A stretch of 38,720 bases of DNA from a virus. Its lineage: Duplodnaviria > Heunggongvirae > Uroviricota > Caudoviricetes. Numbering within the stretch: the first letter of the stretch is position 1; the number at the start of each line of letters is the position of its first letter. The notes under the pieces are model-generated. The model was given only the letters and a program-made list of their open reading frames with translations, had not been told where the DNA came from and searched no databases. Shown piece by piece: positions 5,114-31,716 of the stretch. The translations under genes were made by a program, and so were the position numbers. The DNA is taken from the IMG/VR virus record IMGVR_UViG_2563366844_000005; one strand, 5' to 3'.

Positions 5114-8100
5114 TCAGCTGATACTGATGCCTGCGGTGGCTTTCTTCATCACCACAACCAGCAAATCGCTGATACTTGCTGTGGGATACCAGCCATTTAC
5201 CAGCCATGCCGATACAGAAAATTCCAGTGTCATTACACCACTGCCTGCAGGCATATCAATAACACCCGTATATATCAGCGTATTATCCAGAGCCGTTCGG
5301 TTATAAATTTCAGCACCGTTTTTTCGTACTATCAGACGGCATGAGGAGTAGATATCAGTATGATCTTGCTCATGTTTAGCGCCACTGAATGCCACCGCCG
5401 GAATAACAATTTGCCGGTCAAACGGCTGATCGTCATAAACCCTGACGGTAATGGTCCCTGATGGCCACCGCTCCGGTGCACGGGAGTCCCGGGGGAAAGC
5501 TTTGCCCACCGTTTTAACAATATCGCCTTCAATCTGGTTGGCTGACAGTTTTCCCAGAATCCGGCAGTTCTGATTAATCGTGACATTGTTGAGCGTCCCG
5601 GAGTTCGCATTCACGTTACCGCTGATATCGGCATTTTTCGCCGTCAGCCGCCCGTCCGGTGTCAGGGAAAATGCCGGAGGATTACCGCCGCTGGTAATGG
5701 TGGGAGCCGTCAGGTATTTCAGGAACACTTCGTTCATAAATATCTGATCGCCCTGACCAACAAACATCGGCTTTGTGTTGCCATTCGCAGGATTAATCAT
5801 CGCAATCCTGTCTGCCGCCAGCAGCACCTGACTCTGCATGCCGTCAGGGGTGTTTTCAATACCGGCACCAATACCCGCGATATAAAGGCGTCCGTCCTGC
5901 ATCTGCTGCAGCTTCACAGCCCACATGCTGTTCAGGTTATTATTTGTATCAACCTGAACCTTCTGTATCTGCTGAATTGCCGCACTCTGGTCTTCCAGTT
6001 TCTTATTGACGGTCTGCGTGATTTCATTACTGACATCCGTGATGGACGTTCTGATTTCCGCCAGGTCAGGCGCAAGCTGACCGTTATCAATCTGCGTCCA
6101 CAACTCCTGAGCCAGATGGGTTTTCCCTATCTCTCCTTTGAAAAAATCCAGATAGCCGGATGCATCATCACTCGGCTGGCCAACAGCCTCCACGAATGCA
6201 GATTTGCCAACGGTGTTCACACTGCGGATGTAAAAATAATAATCATGGCCCGGCTTGATATTGATACTGGCAGCTATCCAGTACAGCGCCGTGCCAAGAT
6301 AGCGGGCTGTGGTTTCAACCTGCCTGATATCCGCAATCCGCTTTTCTGAGAACCAGAACTCAAACTGTACCGTCGGATCATAAACGGCGAGATGCGGCGT
6401 GGCGGTTATCTGAAAATAGCCCGGCGTCAGCTCAATCCGCGATGGCGCTGCCGGTGCGGCAATCCGGAACGATACCGATGCCGGATCGCCCTGCTGCCCC
6501 CAGGCATTTGCCGCCCGGACTGTCAGCCTGTAATTTCCCAGCGCCAGTTGCCTGAAGCGGTATGTGGTTTCCGTCGTCCGGGCCGTGCTGACCAGCCGCT
6601 CACTGCCGTCATCCGCTGCCACGGTCAGGCGAAGCAGGAAGCTCACGCCCTTCACCACCTTCGGCGTGTCCCAGCGCGCCAGCACCTGATATTCCCCGCT
6701 GTCTGCGGTGACTTCGGCGGTCAGGTGCTGCACCGCTGGCGGCGTGACACCGTTCACCGTTCCGCTCTGGTCGCCGTCAAAGTGCGCCCCGTTATCCACG
6801 ATGGCTTCTTTCTCCGGCACATGCTGCACGGCAGTGATGGCATACGTGCCGTCATCGTTCTCACGGATACTCACACAGCGGAACAGGCGCTGGCGCAGCG
6901 TCGGCAGCTTCAGCCCCCATACGCTGTATTCGGCAACACCGTCAGGAACACGGCTCACTTTTACCTTCACGCCGTCGGTGACGGACTGAACCTCCACGCT
7001 GACCGGATTGCCACTTCCGTCAACCAGGCTTATCAGCGTGGTACCGGAGGATGGCAGCGTGATTTCACGGTCGAGCGTCAGCGTCCGGGTCTGGCTGTTC
7101 ACCGCCAGCACGCGACCACCGATGCTGATACCGGCATAGTCATCATCACAGATTTCAATGACATCGCCCGGTACATGGCGAAGCCCTTCGGCACCCACGC
7201 TGAAGTCCACGGTCTGCGTTTCCAGCAGTTCCGTTTTAATCAGCCACAGCCCGGCGCGGTGCGCCTGCCCCCGGCTGGTACAGCCAAAGGCATCCATCTT
7301 CGTGACGTTACGACCGTAACGGAGAATGGCCTGCGTATCTTCAACAAGCTCTGTCGCCGTCTCCCAGCCGTTATCCGGGTCAATCCAGTTCACCTCAACG
7401 GCATTATGGCGGTCCTTCAGGGCGCTGAAGCTGTAGCGGAACGGCGCGCCATCATCCGGCATAACCACATTACTGTGGTTATAGGTCCACACCTTATCCG
7501 ACGGTCGGTCCTGCACGAACGTCAGCGTCTGCCCGTTCCATACCGGCATACAGCGCATCGCCGAACAGAAATCACTGAGCACATCCCACGCCTTACGCTG
7601 TGTGGTCAGGTAAGCGTTACAGGTGATGCGCGGCTCCGTGCCACCAAAGCCATCCGGCACTGACTGATCGCAATACTGGCCGATGACATACAGCGCCCAT
7701 TTGTCCACATCCGCCGCACCAAGACGTTTCCCCATGCCGTAGCGCGGGTGGGTCAGCATATCCCACAGACACCAGGCCATGTTGTTGCTGTATGCCGGTT
7801 TAAACGTCCCGTCCCAGATACCGCTGTATTGCCGCGTCTGCGGGTTATAGTTCGATGGCACCTGCAGAATGCGCCCGCGAAGATGATAATTACGGCTCAC
7901 CTGCTGGCTGCCGAACTGTTCCGAGTCCACCTGCACGCCGACCAGTGCCGTGTTCGGGTAGCACTGTTTCACATCGATGATTTCAGTGTATGACGACCAG
8001 AGCGTTTTGTTCTGCAGCTGGTCTGTGGTGCTGTCCGGCGTCATCCTGCGCATCCGGATATTAAACGGGCGCGGCGGCAGGTTACCCACCACCACCGAGG

Positions 8101-23443: not shown

Positions 23444-23908
23444 CTACTTAATGCACTGAGTGCGGATATACTCCTGTGCCCCTTCCAGTTGCATCTGCAT
23501 CGTCATCAGCCGCTCTCTGAGGGTGAAATAATCCCGTTCAGCGGTGTCTGCCAGTCGGGGGCTGGTTGCATTATCCACGCCGGAGGCGGTGGTGGCTTCA
23601 CGCACTGACTGACAGACTGCTTTGATGTGCAACCGACGACGACCAGCGACAACATCAGCGCGCAGAGTTTCATTTTCAGCTTTCGCATTGGCTAATTCTC
23701 TCGAGTACTTTGCATCGAGCGCAGCAACATCACGCTGACGCTGCTGCATGTCAGCGATGGTGGCGATCGCCAGCTTCAGCTCACTGACTTTTTTATCACG
23801 CTGTTCTTTGTAGGCGATGGCGTTATCACGGTAATGATTGACCGCCCACGACAGGCAGACGATGATGCAGATAACCAGAGCATAAATAATCGCGGCGACT
23901 CTGCTCAC
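23444..23908 (-). CDS. Rz: Spanin inner-membrane subunit Rz
   Basis: Closely matches lambda Rz as recalled ([29 protein letters not shown]...); probable GTG start at 23908 overlapping the endolysin stop (GTGA). Confidence 0.85.
23506..23688 (-). CDS. Rz1: Spanin outer-membrane lipoprotein Rz1, embedded in Rz in another frame
   Basis: 60 aa; lipobox LVVVGC; proline run PPPPPAW; matches lambda Rz1 as recalled. Confidence 0.85.
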
Positions 23909-24438
23909 TGATCTATTCCCCAACAGGCTAATGCGCTTTCCTGGTCACGACGAATAACCTGACCGTAACAGTTATTTGAACGAATGCGGCAATCACGGCC
24001 ACCGTCCTTAATCCACCAGCGAATCGCCTCGCATGCACCTTTACGATCACCGGCATTCAGCCGCTTATAAAACGTCGACGGGAAACACTTACCAGGGCCA
24101 ATGTTATAGGGACAAAATGACGCTATACCCGCTTTCTGTGGCTCGGTCAGTGGTACTTTAATATTACGTTCCACCCATGCCAGCGCCTTATCACGTTCAA
24201 TAGCGTTAACCTGGTCGCACTTTTCCTTCGACAGCTTCATTCCCGGTATGACGGGCTTACCATCCACCATTGTGGCACCGCGGCAGATGGTCCATATACC
24301 GGAACCATCACGGTATGCCGTTGTGTGATTACCCTCTTTTTCGTTCAGAAACTGGTCAAGAATGTCAGGCGCAGGCGCACCTGCGGCAATCAGCGCCAGA
24401 ACGACAGCCGACAGACCGTATTTGATTTTTGCGCTCAT
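23905..24438 (-). CDS. SAR endolysin (lysozyme-like)
   Basis: N-terminal weakly hydrophobic Gly/Ala-rich signal-anchor-release segment from the ATG at 24438 (the track ORF begins with TTG at 24477); paired with a pinholin. Confidence 0.85.
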
Positions 24439-24574
24439 GGATATGGATGGATATTTATCAGGATTTATCGGTTCCAAATCCCTGGATATGTTTAGTACTC
24501 AGCCCGGCAGGTAGTTCCTCGCAGGGGTAATACTGACAATGTGAAGATCACAGAACAAACAGTAAGGACAACAT

Positions 24575-24856
24575 ATGAGCGATACTTATTTATCTAAAAA
24601 AGCTTTTGCTGATATTCTGGCCATCAGACAGGTTGTCATACTCCTGGTTAACGATTTACCAGATGAGAAAAAAGCAATTATTAAAGATTTGCTTACTAAA
24701 TCAGCTGACACTTTTTCATCAAAAAAATTACCCGAATCCCTGGAAACCCCGCAGGAAGTTTTAGACGAAATGAACAAATTGATTGCCGAATCATGCGCTA
24801 CTCTTGCTGAGACAATTTTAATTCCTGAAGAAGCTTCGTCGTCATACCATCAATAG
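24575..24856 (+). CDS. Hypothetical small acidic protein on the opposite strand inside the lysis cassette
   Basis: 93 aa; AT-rich; AAGGA SD 6 nt before the ATG; 3' end overlaps the 3' end of the convergent 174-aa gene by 59 nt. Confidence 0.5.
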   Translation: MSDTYLSKKAFADILAIRQVVILLVNDLPDEKKAIIKDLLTKSADTFSSKKLPESLETPQEVLDEMNKLIAESCATLAETILIPEEASSSYHQ

Positions 24857-25322
24857 TTTGCTGAACAGCTTTAGCAACAAACGCCACCCCATTTTCGTGG
24901 TGGCGTTGTCGCTCATTTACGGCTCGCATCGCGGCAACTATCGCACGACTTATGTCATCCCCGGCGTTTTTTTCCCGCCCTGCGCGCCTGGTGTTGGCTT
25001 TAACTGCACTATCAAAACCCGCAAGATGAGGACGATCGTGTTTATTGGCAGAATTTTCAATCTTAATGGAGTACTGATGCTGCAGATAAGACTCAACTTT
25101 TTCTGACAATTTTTCTGCCACTCCCAGGAAGACCTGCCTGACGCTCATTCTGGCTGCTGCCTCATAAAACTCCAGCGCGGCACCTTCAACACGGTCCATG
25201 GTGATGACCAGGTCAAAAATTTCACCGTCAAAGCGTTTTTTGTCCCGTAATGCTACAGTTACCGCAACTTTATTCTCAAAATTGCGGATCCCTTTCACAA
25301 TCAGTTCATAGTTTTGAGTCAT
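24798..25322 (-). CDS. Hypothetical protein between holin and endolysin
   Basis: 174-aa soluble protein; ATG 5 nt after the holin stop with a GGGGAGAG SD. Confidence 0.6.
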   Translation of the reverse strand: MTQNYELIVKGIRNFENKVAVTVALRDKKRFDGEIFDLVITMDRVEGAALEFYEAAARMSVRQVFLGVAEKLSEKVESYLQHQYSIKIENSANKHDRPHLAGFDSAVKANTRRAGREKNAGDDISRAIVAAMRAVNERQRHHENGVAFVAKAVQQTIDGMTTKLLQELKLSQQE

Positions 25323-25848: not shown

Positions 25849-25951
25849 CGAAGTTACCTCTCTTCACCAAGAATTCGGTAATAAAATAACTTGTGGCGCT
25901 CTCGTTTTTATGCCGATAAAATAAACGGTCCACTTTCAAATGGAGCGATTC

Positions 25952-26872
25952 ATGATTTTTCTCAGAACTGAAAACGGCATCGAGAAACTTGAAAACTGGG
26001 AGGAAATTATATCCAGACCAAACTTTGTCACCGCTATAGACAAAGGAGTTCAACAACTTGAGGAGATAATTGGTTACTACAAATTTAAAGAAGAAATCCA
26101 CTGTGGTCTAACTGGTTGCAACCAACCACATCAAATGGGTTATATTGTAAAAACATCTAGTGGCATTGAAACCAACATCGGAAATAAATGTGGTAAAAAC
26201 GAATTTGGTGTGGAATTTGGTGAAAACGTTCTTAGTTTCAATAAACTTATGCAACTCGAAACCAATCGGGAAATTATTAGTACCGCAAAAAGTAAATGTG
26301 AAGCGTGGCAAAAAAATATTGAAACGATACGAAATATCAAACCCACAATAGATTATCTATCTTCTACCATCGAAAATAGTAAAAATTCCAATTACGCCGG
26401 AAGACTTGGTGCTACAGAAATTCGTTTTTTGACCAAGAGCCAGACAGGCCTTGTAACCCTTTCTGAAGTGGAAACTGATAAGAATACCAAAACAATTCTG
26501 TTCGCAATGAATGAACACATGCGCGAGTCTGGAGAAGCAATAAGTGAATTCTACATAGGAAAAGTATCATTTAGTCATGTTCTTTTACCAGAAAACAATC
26601 TTCGTGATTTTTTTGTTGCGCTCAAAGAAGATCTAAAAAAAATTCAGTGTATTGATCTACAAACAGCCCCAAGCCCAGAAATTTCTAATGTTGCCAAAAT
26701 TGCCAGTTCAATCGAAGAACGAATCAAACGATTAAAAAAACTGAAACATGAAGCCAGTAAATTCCTAACTAAAAAAAATCTGCGTCCCATCGCAAACAAA
26801 ATAAAATACTCATCGACAGCGGATGAACTTGAATTCCATAATTTCGAACGCTTTTTAAACGGGCTGAAATGA
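25952..26872 (+). CDS. Hypothetical 307-aa protein, AT-rich moron antisense to the late operon
   Basis: Uninterrupted ORF in a visibly AT-rich block; second ATG at 25952 has a GGAG SD at 6 nt; Lys/Glu/Asn/Ile-rich; no family recognised; stable hairpin immediately 3'. Confidence 0.65.
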   Translation: MIFLRTENGIEKLENWEEIISRPNFVTAIDKGVQQLEEIIGYYKFKEEIHCGLTGCNQPHQMGYIVKTSSGIETNIGNKCGKNEFGVEFGENVLSFNKLMQLETNREIISTAKSKCEAWQKNIETIRNIKPTIDYLSSTIENSKNSNYAGRLGATEIRFLTKSQTGLVTLSEVETDKNTKTILFAMNEHMRESGEAISEFYIGKVSFSHVLLPENNLRDFFVALKEDLKKIQCIDLQTAPSPEISNVAKIASSIEERIKRLKKLKHEASKFLTKKNLRPIANKIKYSSTADELEFHNFERFLNGLK

Positions 26873-26986: not shown

Positions 26987-27817
26987 TTAGTTCACATCAT
27001 CACCAAAACTTGTCACATTCTGAAAAGCAATATCGGCCTTATGCTCTTCCTGGTGACAAATGTCAACCAGAGAATCAAGAAACGGCTTCCAATTACGTGT
27101 CCATGTCCTGACATGTAGCTCGGGTATCCGCTTCAGTACAACTTTATATACTGTGGTAGACGGTATCGTGGAAAATCCATTTCCGCTACAACGTTCGCAG
27201 ATTTTAAACACTGGCACACCACGCTCGCTTGTGGCTTTGCGGTCCAGTACCTCTCCCTTTCCACCACAACGACACCTGGCACTTATCACTCCCTTCCCTT
27301 TACATACATCGCAAACGACTGGTACAACTTCTGTTACCTCTGTCCATTTCTCCCAGTCTGACGGTCGAACAGCACGGGAGCGACTGGCCCAATATGGTGC
27401 TTTACCCCATGGGTATGAAACCTTACGAATGACCTGCTTACGGGGTGTTAGTCCGGTACCACTGCAACTATGGCATGTTACGCTGGTGGACGCCGATCGG
27501 GAATACTCAGCAAAAGCAAACTGCGCCAGCACCAGCATACACCAGCCAAATTCACCACCAGCTGCTTTACGCACATTCTTCGGTGCAATTTCCATCGCGT
27601 GACGCGCCAGCGCCTGGACTGCCATCTGCTCATCAGTCTTGCTGATACCTGCCTTCCCGAAGAAGGCCACCAGACCAAACCGCTCACGATTGCTGGTGGT
27701 ACCAATAGCCGCCATAACATCGGTGCCTGTAAGACGTTCCGGAGAGGTTCCTTTCACATCATCGCCGATATACATTCCCTGAGGACTGAAGTATTTTAGG
27801 GATGCCTCAAGCTTCAT
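26987..27817 (-). CDS. Putative late-gene regulator at the Q position, with DnaJ-type zinc-finger repeats
   Basis: 276 aa; four Cys repeats (CHSCSGTG, CDVCKGKG, CRCGGKG, CERCSGNG); last gene before the late leader and lysis genes. Q-family membership not verified. Confidence 0.4.
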   Translation of the reverse strand: MKLEASLKYFSPQGMYIGDDVKGTSPERLTGTDVMAAIGTTSNRERFGLVAFFGKAGISKTDEQMAVQALARHAMEIAPKNVRKAAGGEFGWCMLVLAQFAFAEYSRSASTSVTCHSCSGTGLTPRKQVIRKVSYPWGKAPYWASRSRAVRPSDWEKWTEVTEVVPVVCDVCKGKGVISARCRCGGKGEVLDRKATSERGVPVFKICERCSGNGFSTIPSTTVYKVVLKRIPELHVRTWTRNWKPFLDSLVDICHQEEHKADIAFQNVTSFGDDVN

Positions 27818-28674
27818 TATTCACACTCCCCAACCAGATTAAGAATAACCGCCGCGCCATTGTCTTTCATATATTCGCCCTTTCCGCTTGCCAAAAACCA
27901 ACGACACACCTCCACGGCTTCAGCCCGTGTCACCGGTTTGATGGTCATCAGCAATTTTTCAAGGTAGCGCTCGCGGTCATATACCGATTCGTGATGCTCA
28001 GAGTAACCAAACTCATCGCCCTGTTCTTTAGTTGCAGTGTGGCGAACACTGTAGAGCCAGTCCCAGTAAACAAACTCACGAACTACGTCTGACAATGTAT
28101 GAGGCTCTGGCAGTACATCACGATAGCCATCAACATATGCACGACGCTGATCATCAATTTCATTCATACGGATGCCGTCAATTCTGCCCGCTTTCTTCTC
28201 GGCTGCAGTCCAGCCCCAGAGATGATCGTCGATAAATTTCTGGGAAGACTTGATCACTCGCTCGGCTTCCACATCTTCGAGTGCTGCTTCATAGCTACCA
28301 AACGTAGCCCTGACTGATGCTGCTTTTTTGATATTCTCCCGGGCGATACTGATTGCCTGTGCCGGGTTATCCATGCCGATGGTACCGAAAGCAATCTGGA
28401 AAGGATCGCCACCATTCGCCAGCAGATAACGCGAATAGCGTTCCTGGGCCTCTTTTGGGGAAATTTTAATTTTCACCAGCGCAGCCTCAGCAGCATCCAG
28501 ATGTGCGGGTTCGTTCAGACGGATAACCTCCAGCACCCAAAGATAAGCATCAGTCTGCTTATGCCCGGTGATTCTCCGTTGCTCTGGCAGGGGCTTGATG
28601 TTTGCGAGGACGGAGCTGTACGCTGCCGTCGGGATGGTGAATAGTGCTTTATGTTCGTTGTTATCAGTACGCAT
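27817..28674 (-). CDS. Hypothetical protein between the replication genes and the Q-like gene
   Basis: 285 aa; translationally coupled at both ends (TAATG overlaps); no motif recognised. Confidence 0.6.
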   Translation of the reverse strand: MRTDNNEHKALFTIPTAAYSSVLANIKPLPEQRRITGHKQTDAYLWVLEVIRLNEPAHLDAAEAALVKIKISPKEAQERYSRYLLANGGDPFQIAFGTIGMDNPAQAISIARENIKKAASVRATFGSYEAALEDVEAERVIKSSQKFIDDHLWGWTAAEKKAGRIDGIRMNEIDDQRRAYVDGYRDVLPEPHTLSDVVREFVYWDWLYSVRHTATKEQGDEFGYSEHHESVYDRERYLEKLLMTIKPVTRAEAVEVCRWFLASGKGEYMKDNGAAVILNLVGECE

Positions 28675-29642
28675 TACGCAACCGCCTTTTTCTTATGGAA
28701 AACCAGCTCTCGAACCTGATCACCGTTCATGAGCATATTGTTGAAATCATCGTGATCCGGCCAGTACACGCTCACGCGCTGCAGGTCATTCTTTGCCATC
28801 AGATTGGCATGAGCACATTCGCAAGCCGCAGCCAGCCCGGTGGCGCTGTTCTCATCACGGTCGGCAAAAATAATCAGGTGCAGCACACCAGCTGGTACAC
28901 GGAACTTTTTCATAAAGCCGCTGTTAATGGTTGCCCAGGTGTTCACGTTATAAATCTGGTGCGCTGACAGCGCTGTTTCGATGCCTTCGGCGATACCCAG
29001 AGTGCTAGCGACAGGAAACATGCGGATAGCTACAGAACGAGCGTGGTCCAAATAGTTATCTTCCTGCAGGGATTTGAGGCGCTTTGCACTGCTACCAATA
29101 TCTGCTTTTTTATCACCATCAAGCAGAGTCTGGTGCAGATAGCACAACTCCCCTTTATCGTCCGTAGCAAGTGAATAAAGAGACTGAAACACACTCCCGT
29201 TGTGTCTCTGCCTGGCATTGAACCGGATCGCCTCAGCAGGAAGACTGAATATTCCACGAGAATTAAGATACGCTGCGCCGGATGTACCACGCAGTGCCTC
29301 CAGTTTTGAAAACTTGCTCAATACCCGTTTGCGTAAGCTGGTGGCGCTGCTGGTTGCCGGGATTTTAACCCGTTGGTAATCATTACCGATCAGGCGGTCT
29401 ATTTCGGTACAAATCTCGTTAAATGGCTTCGCCTGTGTCAGGGTGACAAGTTTCATACCATCGCCACTACCACATACACAGATCCACGTTCCTGCACCGT
29501 CGCGGTCATCAATTCGGAACTTGCCACGTGCACCGCATACCGGGCATTCACCCTTGAAGTGATTTTTTCCTGTTATCGGCGGCAAGCCGAAGTGCTCTAA
29601 TATTTCAGGCCAGCGGCCTTTCGCTGCAGCTGCTGTTTTCAT
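28674..29642 (-). CDS. DNA primase (zinc-binding plus Toprim domain)
   Basis: N-terminal CPVCG...CVCG zinc motif; Toprim-like acidic motifs (AEGIETALS, FADRDEN). Confidence 0.8.
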   Translation of the reverse strand: MKTAAAAKGRWPEILEHFGLPPITGKNHFKGECPVCGARGKFRIDDRDGAGTWICVCGSGDGMKLVTLTQAKPFNEICTEIDRLIGNDYQRVKIPATSSATSLRKRVLSKFSKLEALRGTSGAAYLNSRGIFSLPAEAIRFNARQRHNGSVFQSLYSLATDDKGELCYLHQTLLDGDKKADIGSSAKRLKSLQEDNYLDHARSVAIRMFPVASTLGIAEGIETALSAHQIYNVNTWATINSGFMKKFRVPAGVLHLIIFADRDENSATGLAAACECAHANLMAKNDLQRVSVYWPDHDDFNNMLMNGDQVRELVFHKKKAVA

Positions 29643-29643
29643 C

Positions 29644-31302
29644 TTACTGACTCAAACTGTTTATATTTTTCTGGAGTTGTTGCTTTGCTTGCATGATGCG
29701 CCAAGCCTCAGTGCCTATTGGCATCTCGCTTCGCTCACCTCGTTCCTGAGACAGAGGAATCGTTGCCTGCAATTTTTCTATAGTTCTCTGCGTCCGCTGA
29801 CGGCCTTTGGCAAACCGAATCAGCTTGTGTTTGATGTAGTTACTTACCTCTGGGCTTATTTCCATCGGGAAACTGCTCAACCCATCAGGCCATTCACCGA
29901 ATTTCTCCCTGAAAGTGTGAGCACACCATCCATCACTGACTGGACGCCCCAGCGAAGCACGCTGGCGCTGATAAAATTTGATCTGACTCCACCAGGACTG
30001 TTTCTCTGCCTTCGTCGACTGATGCTGATTTTTACCCAGCTTATTAAGTTTGCGGCTAGTGTCAGTATCAACGTCTTCACCTCGCAGCGGCTTGTGTCCA
30101 CATTTCGGGCAAACATAGACGCCAGCTGGCTTCATGTAGTGGCATTGAGGGCATTCATGTGGCAGTTTTTCGGCCCGTTCCTCAACTGCGCGGCGCGCAC
30201 TTTCCTCCATACCGTCAGACTTGCCGGGAAGATCGTCGTACTCGATTGAATCCGGATAACCCAGACGGTGCACGGTGCCGCTATGATCGAAGATGAGGCA
30301 GGACTCTTTACCCGGTGCGGTGCGCAGCCCACGCCCGAGCGCCTGCAACCAGCGAATTTCGCTTTTTGTTGGCCTGGCGTAGATGATGCAACGAACGTCA
30401 CTATCGAAGCCGGCCACCAGCACGCCCACACTAACGATGATTTTCGTTGCACCAGTTTCAAAGCGGTGAATGATGGTCTGGCGCTCATCTACCGGAGTGT
30501 CTGCGGTCATTACCTCAGCGTTAACACCTGCGAGGTTAAACTGGATTGTCAGGTAATTGGCGTGGGCTACGTTAACGCAGAAAGCGATGGTAGGTAGATC
30601 CCGACCATTCTCCAGCCAGTTCTGTACGATGTCGCCCACCAGCGTAGATCCGCACATGATTTCAGCCAGCTGCGTTTCGTTGTAATCCCGGCCGTACTCA
30701 AGCGAAGATGTGGTTTTAACACCTTTCAGATCCGGCTTAGTTGGCGCGTAAAATTCGTATTTACTCAGATCGCCACGCTGGATTAACTCGCCGATTGTGG
30801 TCGGCTTAATCAGTCGGTCATAGTATTTGCCCAGGAACGGGGAAAACGGAGTACCCGACAGGCCAATCACCTTTACGCCTTTGCCGCGCAGACGTTCGAT
30901 ATCCTTCAGGATGCGCTTTTTACGCAGGTGTGCTTCGTCGATAATCAGCAGATCAATATTTTCAGGAAAAACACGACGAATAAGCGTGTCGGCGCTGGCA
31001 ATCTGAATTTTCCGGTCCGGATCGTAGTTCGGGTGATCCGCCCAGATATAACCGATTTCATCCCCCGGTAATCCATACTCCACGAACCGATTAGCCGTCT
31101 GGCCGATCAGGATGGTGTACGGTGCACAGAACAGGACGCGCATACCACGGCTGACAAACCCGGCAACGATGAAGGCAGCCAAACCCGTTTTACCACTACC
31201 GGTTGGCGAATACACCATGAAGGTGTCGTTTGCCTTCCAATCACGGCGCAACATGTTTAGCGCTCGTTCCTGTGCAAAATTCGGCGTGATCGTCAGCTCC
31301 AT
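29644..31302 (-). CDS. SF2 (DEAD/DEAH-type) replicative helicase
   Basis: Walker A SPTGSGKTG, Walker B/DEAH IIDEAH, C-terminal CPQC...CPKCG zinc ribbon. Confidence 0.85.
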   Translation of the reverse strand: MELTITPNFAQERALNMLRRDWKANDTFMVYSPTGSGKTGLAAFIVAGFVSRGMRVLFCAPYTILIGQTANRFVEYGLPGDEIGYIWADHPNYDPDRKIQIASADTLIRRVFPENIDLLIIDEAHLRKKRILKDIERLRGKGVKVIGLSGTPFSPFLGKYYDRLIKPTTIGELIQRGDLSKYEFYAPTKPDLKGVKTTSSLEYGRDYNETQLAEIMCGSTLVGDIVQNWLENGRDLPTIAFCVNVAHANYLTIQFNLAGVNAEVMTADTPVDERQTIIHRFETGATKIIVSVGVLVAGFDSDVRCIIYARPTKSEIRWLQALGRGLRTAPGKESCLIFDHSGTVHRLGYPDSIEYDDLPGKSDGMEESARRAVEERAEKLPHECPQCHYMKPAGVYVCPKCGHKPLRGEDVDTDTSRKLNKLGKNQHQSTKAEKQSWWSQIKFYQRQRASLGRPVSDGWCAHTFREKFGEWPDGLSSFPMEISPEVSNYIKHKLIRFAKGRQRTQRTIEKLQATIPLSQERGERSEMPIGTEAWRIMQAKQQLQKNINSLSQ

Positions 31303-31716
31303 TGTGCTGCTCCCGTGCTGATGAGATAATAATTTCGTGATGTGGTTTTCATGGATTCCCCCTCACATGGCTGGTGGCCTCCCCAAAGGCTGCCAGCCCC
31401 CTTTCTGATTCAGCTCCTCTGAAAAATCACTCTTCCAAGAAGAACCCTTTTCGTTTCTCAAGGCCTGGGCGCTTTGTACTACCTTGCTGATACGAGCGTT
31501 TTTTTAAATTGCGCCCTTAAGACAGTGATCTACTTAACCAATGGATCTCTCCTGTTGGAAAAGACCCTATTCCTGCCCCTACACCCAATCCCCCCCTACC
31601 CCCCCTTTCCCTCTTCCCCATAAAAACGTACTACTTACCTAGTACATATGAGGAATTGGGTCAGTTGGTTGCCAACCTGAACAGGCACCTTTAAGCCTGC
31701 TTCTGTTCGGGTGCCT

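Follow-up and report, generated by a model that had tools for sequence, protein, structure and literature searches.

A phrog_6204 gene between primase and Q in a lambdoid phage related to Fels-1 and phi467: conservation, dispensability and possible function

In lambdoid phages, the interval between the replication genes and the gene of the late antiterminator Q is the site of the Nin genes (NinB/Orf, NinG/Rap, NinH and RusA), which are tightly packed by stop/start junctions, dispensable and mosaic in their distribution. In the 38,720-nucleotide sequence of a tailed phage analysed here (IMG/VR record IMGVR_UViG_2563366844_000005, Caudoviricetes; this whole stretch is called the window), the slot is taken up by an open reading frame (ORF), 27817..28674, hereafter referred to as gene X. 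Gene X has in common with the lambdoid Nin genes the position, the packing and the dispensable and mosaic character, but it shows no sequence or fold similarity to them, its product being predicted as all-helical. The closest described counterparts are STM0902 of Salmonella phage Fels-1, CUW01237.1 of the Stx2f phage phi467 and G186_gp28 of Cronobacter phage ENT39118, which belong to the same family, phrog_6204, and from which nothing material sets gene X apart. A shorter relative, the 158-residue phrog_2887 protein of several Klebsiella phages, exemplified by gp43 of KPP5665-2, sits in the identical slot, in the order helicase-primase-gp43-Q. It matches residues 135-285 of gene X in BLAST (37% identity) and residues 171-285 by hidden Markov model (HMM), and retains the first residues of the N-terminal motif described below together with the C-terminal bundle, while roughly residues 16-134 are lost by an internal deletion. 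Gene X is proposed to be an early accessory gene, and a dispensable one, that occupies this slot in a lambdoid phage of the Fels-1/phi467 type.

Gene X is no orphan, in fact, as it belongs to a catalogued family of which near-identical copies have already been deposited as hypothetical proteins. Specifically, it aligns over its full length with the function-unknown PHROG family phrog_6204 (E 1.7e-183; residues 1-285 against positions 1-285 of the 286-position profile), and this profile is matched by all 69 aligned homologues; its C-terminal third is additionally recognised by two shorter families of unknown function, phrog_2887 and phrog_19083. Identity to gene X amounts to 98% of amino acids and 98.8% of nucleotides for the phi467 protein, annotated as hypothetical, to 84% and 81.6%, respectively, for STM0902, and to 79% of amino acids for G186_gp28. 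The gene order helicase-primase-X-Q is common to phi467, Fels-1, ENT39118 and the window, whose phage is a close relative of phi467 and of Fels-1. Homologues number 394 at E<=1e-3, and an exhaustive HMMER search resolved the family into 138 representative clusters; a profile search brought in further members from Pseudomonas, Telluria and Rhodoferax, all named 'hypothetical protein', and 97 of 5,426 complete E. coli genomes carry gene X. The P0156 scan of viral contigs found nothing, and neither did a literature search on STM0902 or phrog_6204. The gene is under ordinary purifying selection in its minus-strand frame, with a ratio of nonsynonymous to synonymous substitution rates (dN/dS) of 0.12 against Fels-1 and 0.10 against ENT39118, to be compared with 0.11-0.13 for Q and 0.07-0.12 for the helicase. 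Since this ratio is like that of Q and helicase, and since the homologues and clusters are so many, gene X is a real gene and not a chance ORF; overlapping ORFs on the plus strand are regarded as its shadows.

Gene X is missing from several relatives that are otherwise homologous in this region. In the E. coli D53-1 prophage, the helicase shares 73%, the primase 75% and Q 72% identity with its counterpart in the window, but the primase overlaps Q directly and no trace of gene X was found. The same X-less primase-Q arrangement characterizes Escherichia phage Fostie and Yersinia phage YP3, both environmental isolates, and Klebsiella phage ST16-OXA48phi5.3 appears to be X-less too. In the Stx phage TL-2011c, with a helicase 68% and a primase 57% identical to those of the window, the interval between primase and Q is filled by NinB-NinG-NinH. 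TL-2011c is of the Eru1 type (PMC8044961), and gene X is not discussed in the papers on Eru replication units, this one included. Among complete E. coli genomes, all 97 matches that span primase and gene X at full length, with a nucleotide identity of at least 77%, include gene X, and about 124 genomes with more distant primases have no gene X. Because homologous X-less relatives exist, neither the helicase-primase module nor Q requires gene X, and the possibility of an essential replication gene was rejected on the evidence of Fostie, YP3, D53-1 and TL-2011c. Judging from these genome comparisons, gene X is most simply described as an optional accessory gene that behaves like a classical nin gene: it lies between replication genes and Q, and it varies between related phages. 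The label 'nin-equivalent', given to this region in an earlier note made from the window alone, is justified by the presence of NinB-NinG-NinH in the same slot of TL-2011c.

The architecture of the locus is summarised in Table 1. The ORF list and the reading of the sequence agree that a single ORF occupies the whole interval from primase to Q, and both flanking genes are as the earlier note had described them. The coupling that it had claimed on both sides is also borne out, by two TAATG stop/start overlaps. In particular, the TAA stop of the primase (28676-28674) and the ATG of gene X (28674-28672) share base 28674, and the TAA of gene X (27819-27817) and the ATG of Q (27817-27815) share base 27817, an arrangement that, as read from the letters, is indicative of translational coupling of gene X to primase and to Q. 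Gene X lies inside the early lytic operon, which, by analogy with lambdoid phages, should be silent, or repressed, in the lysogen. Neither iterons nor an AT-rich tract were found inside the gene, and a replication origin hidden in it was rejected on both counts; the window is also devoid of Rfam families and tRNA genes.

These features bear on the suggestion that gene X protects the lysogen, by anti-phage defence or by superinfection exclusion. Variable prophage slots often house defence cargo, and a search of PADLOC-DB v2 did return one match, to PbeC (E 0.0025, 14 bits), which is partial, spans only residues 135-180 (46 residues) and stays below a useful threshold. The helicase encoded two genes upstream is matched by PbeA models (E 3e-14), but also by many other models of helicases; a Pbe system context was not accepted, this match reflecting generic superfamily 2 (SF2) helicase similarity. 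Moreover, GC content is about 0.50 across the whole block and that of gene X is the same as its neighbours', promoter-like and terminator-like sites are no more frequent in the block than in shuffled sequence, dN/dS is ordinary, and stop/start coupling within an operon repressed in the lysogen, if the lambdoid analogy holds, is hardly what a protector of the lysogen would need. A defence role is the least supported of the explanations considered, and highly improbable. Of the hint at 'accessory or defence functions' in the earlier note, the accessory half is favoured by the X-less relatives and by the nin genes of TL-2011c, and the defence half is disfavoured by the 14-bit PbeC match, the matching GC content and the lack of any promoter excess.

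The surroundings of gene X homologues give further insight into the family. In 80 of 80 close IMG/VR relatives, gene X follows directly after a primase of about 322 residues. Downstream of it lies a Q of the PF03589 family in most, and an unrelated Q of the PF06530 family in about 14, one close relative having an 85-residue ORF, RusA and a PF06530 Q in succession. A specific partnership of gene X with PF03589 Q was rejected on account of the PF06530 Q in about 14 of the 80, of the intervening RusA, and of Fostie and YP3, where a PF03589 Q works without gene X. Some members of the family carry an additional N-terminal segment, or head, which gene X does not have. In 79 enteric loci, headed members are preceded by a DUF927 primase-helicase, by its single-stranded DNA-binding protein (SSB) or by a ProQ/FinO-family protein, whereas headless members come after a short primase in about 28 loci and after a DnaB-like helicase in 3; a Q of either family comes next in 58 of the 79. 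Outside the enterics, some members belong to satellite-like integrative elements, in which they are placed two genes behind either a D5_N primase or a Toprim/DUF927 pair. Pseudomonas-type members lie in a leftward early operon, few genes from the integrase and far from replication genes; in one lineage the member follows a PrtN-type activator, and in one satellite-like element the homologue adjoins a type I restriction-modification locus. Gene X, in other words, forms a module of its own where the replication genes meet Q, and it is found with three replication systems and two Q families.

This distribution could also be explained if gene X served the helicase-primase replication module as a non-essential component or modulator. 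Possible roles include an adaptor that recognises the origin or recruits the replisome, a replacement for the helicase-binding C-terminal domain that the short primase is missing, and a regulator of copy number. The position directly after the primase in all 80 close relatives, with translational coupling, is what this explanation would expect, as is the finding of members zero to two genes downstream of four types of replication protein, namely the short Toprim primase, the DUF927 primase-helicase, the D5_N primase and the DnaB-like helicase. Furthermore, the headless form goes with the short-primase module and the headed form with the DUF927/SSB module, and the 322-residue primase of the window has no helicase domain and ends without a further domain after Toprim in the Pfam scan. 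On the other side, the homologous modules of Fostie, YP3, the D53-1 prophage and TL-2011c do without gene X, the Pseudomonas-type members are remote from replication genes, and the gene contains neither iterons nor an AT-rich tract. Searches for likeness to lambda P, DnaC/IstB, DnaD/DnaT, the C-terminal helicase-binding domain of DnaG and the O/HTH_36 initiators revealed no sequence or fold similarity in gene X. All considered, a replication role is rather unlikely. A related candidate, that a long primase has split and left gene X as its detached C-terminal half, was rejected: phrog_510 extends over 667 positions, of which the window primase covers only 16-362, and gene X has no match to it.

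The protein itself resembles no described domain. No match was found in scans of Pfam (E<=1) and NCBIfam, nothing below E 0.1 in sequence and profile searches of the PDB, and nothing in a Foldseek search of viral predicted structures (BFVD). In particular, Pfam, PHROG and NCBIfam scans yielded no match to models of NinB/Orf, NinG/Rap, NinH, NinI or RusA, although scans of the same type do recognise RusA in one related locus. The statement of the earlier note that no domain is recognisable is upheld by the Pfam, NCBIfam, PADLOC, PDB and structure searches; the profile and structure-based searches that it had proposed produced no known domain or fold, and they did not show gene X to be clearly homologous to any Nin or replication accessory protein. 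Gene X was found to belong to none of the known defence, replication-accessory or helix-turn-helix (HTH) families tested. The name 'helix-turn-helix domain-containing protein', which NCBI gives to 285-residue homologues, is not supported for headless members such as gene X, in whose product no HTH DNA-binding domain was recognised.

An AlphaFold2 model built with 69 diverse homologues as input is entirely helical (mean predicted local distance difference test score 92.2, predicted template modelling score 0.85). Residues 1-38 are mostly extended, with one short helix at 6-11, and carry the conserved motifs N..H..LF.IP and TG....D..LW. They are followed by an N-terminal helical lobe (residues 39-131), by a variable insertion that is peculiar to the enteric clade (residues from about 148 to 178) and by the most conserved part, a C-terminal four-helix bundle (residues 185-285). 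Nine polar positions are conserved (N5, T36, D42, Y80, E138, E200, R211, R234 and E252). The protein is acidic, with an isoelectric point (pI) of 5.6, and most of the family falls at pI 5-6.

An acidic, helical protein without enzymatic signature would suit an early counter-defence or host-takeover factor that neutralises a host immunity or nuclease protein. In phage lambda, ren follows the replication genes. The early expression expected from the position of gene X in the lytic operon, its variable presence among otherwise syntenic phages and the homologue beside a type I restriction-modification locus are all compatible with such a factor. Nevertheless, Pfam, PDB and BFVD searches, none of them using a library dedicated to anti-defence proteins, detected no sequence or fold likeness to known anti-defence proteins, an arms race is not apparent from the dN/dS of about 0.1, and the DNA-binding heads of most relatives are untypical of direct inhibitors. 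A counter-defence function is considered unlikely.

The heads deserve closer attention. The motif N-P-x-H-x-x-L-F-x-I/L-P is preceded by at least 36 residues in 41 (about 72%) of the 57 representative clusters in which it could be located, and gene X, beginning three residues ahead of it, has no head. Among 69 members, the heads include the HTH domains Sigma70_r4_2 (12 members), HTH_23 (9) and HTH_28 (7) and, in one, a Bro-N domain that matches PHROG anti-repressor families; one member has a ParB-like domain plus an HTH as its head. With such a plan, in which a small N-terminal DNA-binding head is joined to a helical body on the C-terminal side, and with genes that lie in early operons of temperate phages, the headed relatives recall the Bro-N, KilA-N and HTH antirepressor-like proteins Ant, Roi and Rha, but the C-terminal domains of the latter are not matched by the body of gene X in Pfam, and gene X itself is headless.

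A further explanation to be weighed is that gene X regulates transcription or acts as an antirepressor-type factor. In that case, its headed relatives would be DNA-bound one-component regulators, with the helical domain serving to oligomerise or to sense a signal, and the headless copy would titrate a regulator. The combination of an HTH, Bro-N or ParB head with a helical body argues for it, together with the anti-repressor match of the Bro-N part and with the frequent adjacency of late-gene regulators (Q of the two families in 58 of 79 loci, the PrtN-type activator in one lineage). The adjacency to Q is explained equally well by the nin-slot position, however; Q functions without gene X in Fostie and YP3, and the copy under study has no DNA-binding part. 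We regard this explanation as quite unlikely.

Two side observations concern the headed forms. In eight enteric loci (L127 and L128 included), the protein encoded directly upstream is a ProQ/FinO-family, RNA-chaperone-like protein (PF04352, E 1e-17), and in L128 this protein and the X homologue read as one 482-residue ORF, which may be a fusion. In addition, the heads of some distant homologues (P0133, P0138, P0139, P0144 and P0149) are not of the sigma-4-like HTH kind and show a basic motif S/T-x-A-E-R-Q/S-R-R-Y/H-R, for example LSNAERQRRYIARL; as far as a motif can tell, this suggests a candidate fourth type of DNA-binding head.

The explanation that we tentatively prefer, while holding it to be somewhat short of probable, is that the product of gene X is a non-enzymatic, protein-binding early accessory factor. 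It is preferred because the protein has no catalytic signature and is acidic, the heads of the family are modular, the headless form is under constraint and the gene is dispensable. According to this model, gene X would be expressed from the same early rightward transcript as helicase, primase and Q, by stop/start-coupled translation. The working part would be the acidic, all-helical phrog_6204 body, which most relatives fuse to an N-terminal segment, DNA-binding in many. The helical body would bind another phage or host protein, as an adaptor, a sequestering factor or a regulator and without catalysis, so that DNA transactions would be modulated during early lytic growth; headed relatives would act on DNA, and the headless gene X product would act free in solution. 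The mechanism of protein binding, the timing of expression and all the molecular activity of gene X are what we infer. Some points weigh against the model. The nine conserved polar residues might just as well belong to a site of ligand binding or catalysis within a new fold, and the linkage to the primase in 80 of 80 relatives, along with the correlation between heads and replication modules, could mean a more specific role in replication. Furthermore, the statement is a broad one, its narrower versions being less supported.

A bolder proposal, which is very unlikely, sees in the helical body a new fold and a portable effector module that mobile elements put on different DNA-binding heads, the headless copy being a free decoy or adaptor. 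In one version, gene X would hook a host replisome or repair component to the phage helicase-primase. The invariant motif N-P-x-H-x-x-L-F-x-[IL]-P is, presumably, loosely like beta-clamp-binding peptides of the Q-x-x-[LM]-F type, but it has H in place of Q, and the AlphaFold2 model packs it onto the body. In a second version, gene X would antagonise headed homologues carried by satellites.

Table 1. Positions of gene X, its junctions and neighbours, and other features of the window mentioned in the text
Feature	Position	Strand	Remarks
Gene X	27817..28674	minus	ATG start; 285 aa; acidic (pI 5.6); predicted all-helical; headless phrog_6204 member
TAATG junction primase/gene X	28672..28676	minus	read directly from sequence
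TAATG junction gene X/Q	27815..27819	minus	read directly from sequence
Primase	28674..29642	minus	322 aa; Zn_Ribbon_Prim, DUF7146, Toprim_3; phrog_510 'DNA primase'; directly upstream of gene X
SF2 (DEAD/ResIII) helicase	29644..31302	minus	first gene of helicase-primase replication module (Eru1-like); 1-nt gap before primase
Q late-gene antiterminator	26987..27817	minus	276 aa; PF03589, E 6e-52; phrog_127; directly downstream of gene X
310-aa ORF	25940..26872	plus	between Q and holin; phrog_7003 (function unknown)
DUF1327 protein	24798..25322	minus	174 aa; directly downstream of holin
93-aa ORF	24575..24856	opposite to DUF1327 gene	in GC dip to about 0.38
RrrD-type lysozyme-like ORF	23905..24477		downstream of DUF1327 gene
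Non-coding gap	31303..31716		about 400 bp; upstream of helicase

Apart from gene X, the window contains other features worthy of mention. The 310-residue ORF has a GC content of about 0.35-0.37, against about 0.50 in its flanks, and no significant match in Pfam, NCBIfam or PADLOC. In the near-identical phi467, this interval between Q and the lysis genes holds the stx2f A and B genes, with two tRNA genes (tRNA-Gly and tRNA-Thr) between stxB and the holin; no stx is present in the window. Because the tRNAs and stx2f occur only in phi467, the two phages differ mainly in their post-Q cargo. The low-GC cargo gene that the window has in this toxin slot arguably deserves more interest than gene X. 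Among the close relatives with a PF06530 Q, an ADP-ribosyltransferase A subunit, similar to pertussis and heat-labile toxins (Pertussis_S1, E 1.4e-15), is encoded downstream of Q (positions 6376..7723 of locus L025). An adjacent 141-residue ORF without Pfam match is a possible B subunit, and this toxin-like slot parallels the position of stx in phi467. The non-coding gap upstream of the helicase has a strongly negative GC skew and, on the coding strand, a long purine-rich, G-rich tract, GGGGAAGAGGGAAAGGGGGGGTAGGGGGGGATTGGGTGTAGGGGCAGGAATAGGG, as well as a 21-nt imperfect direct repeat; by its composition, it could be the origin or a regulatory region of the helicase-primase module. Finally, the DUF1327 gene lies upstream of the lysozyme-like ORF.

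In conclusion, gene X encodes a well-conserved hypothetical protein in a slot for optional genes, a situation common in temperate phages that will not surprise the phage specialist. Its value is a modest one, as a clean target for which a confident structural model is available without any solved relative, possibly with a new fold. Headed, headless, truncated and absent variants occur naturally in otherwise syntenic phages, and tractable hosts exist in Salmonella LT2 for Fels-1 and in E. coli for Fostie and phi467-like phages. In phi467-type phages, the early operon to which gene X belongs drives Q and hence the expression of Stx2f, so that a regulatory effect of gene X on induction, if true, would be of some medical relevance.
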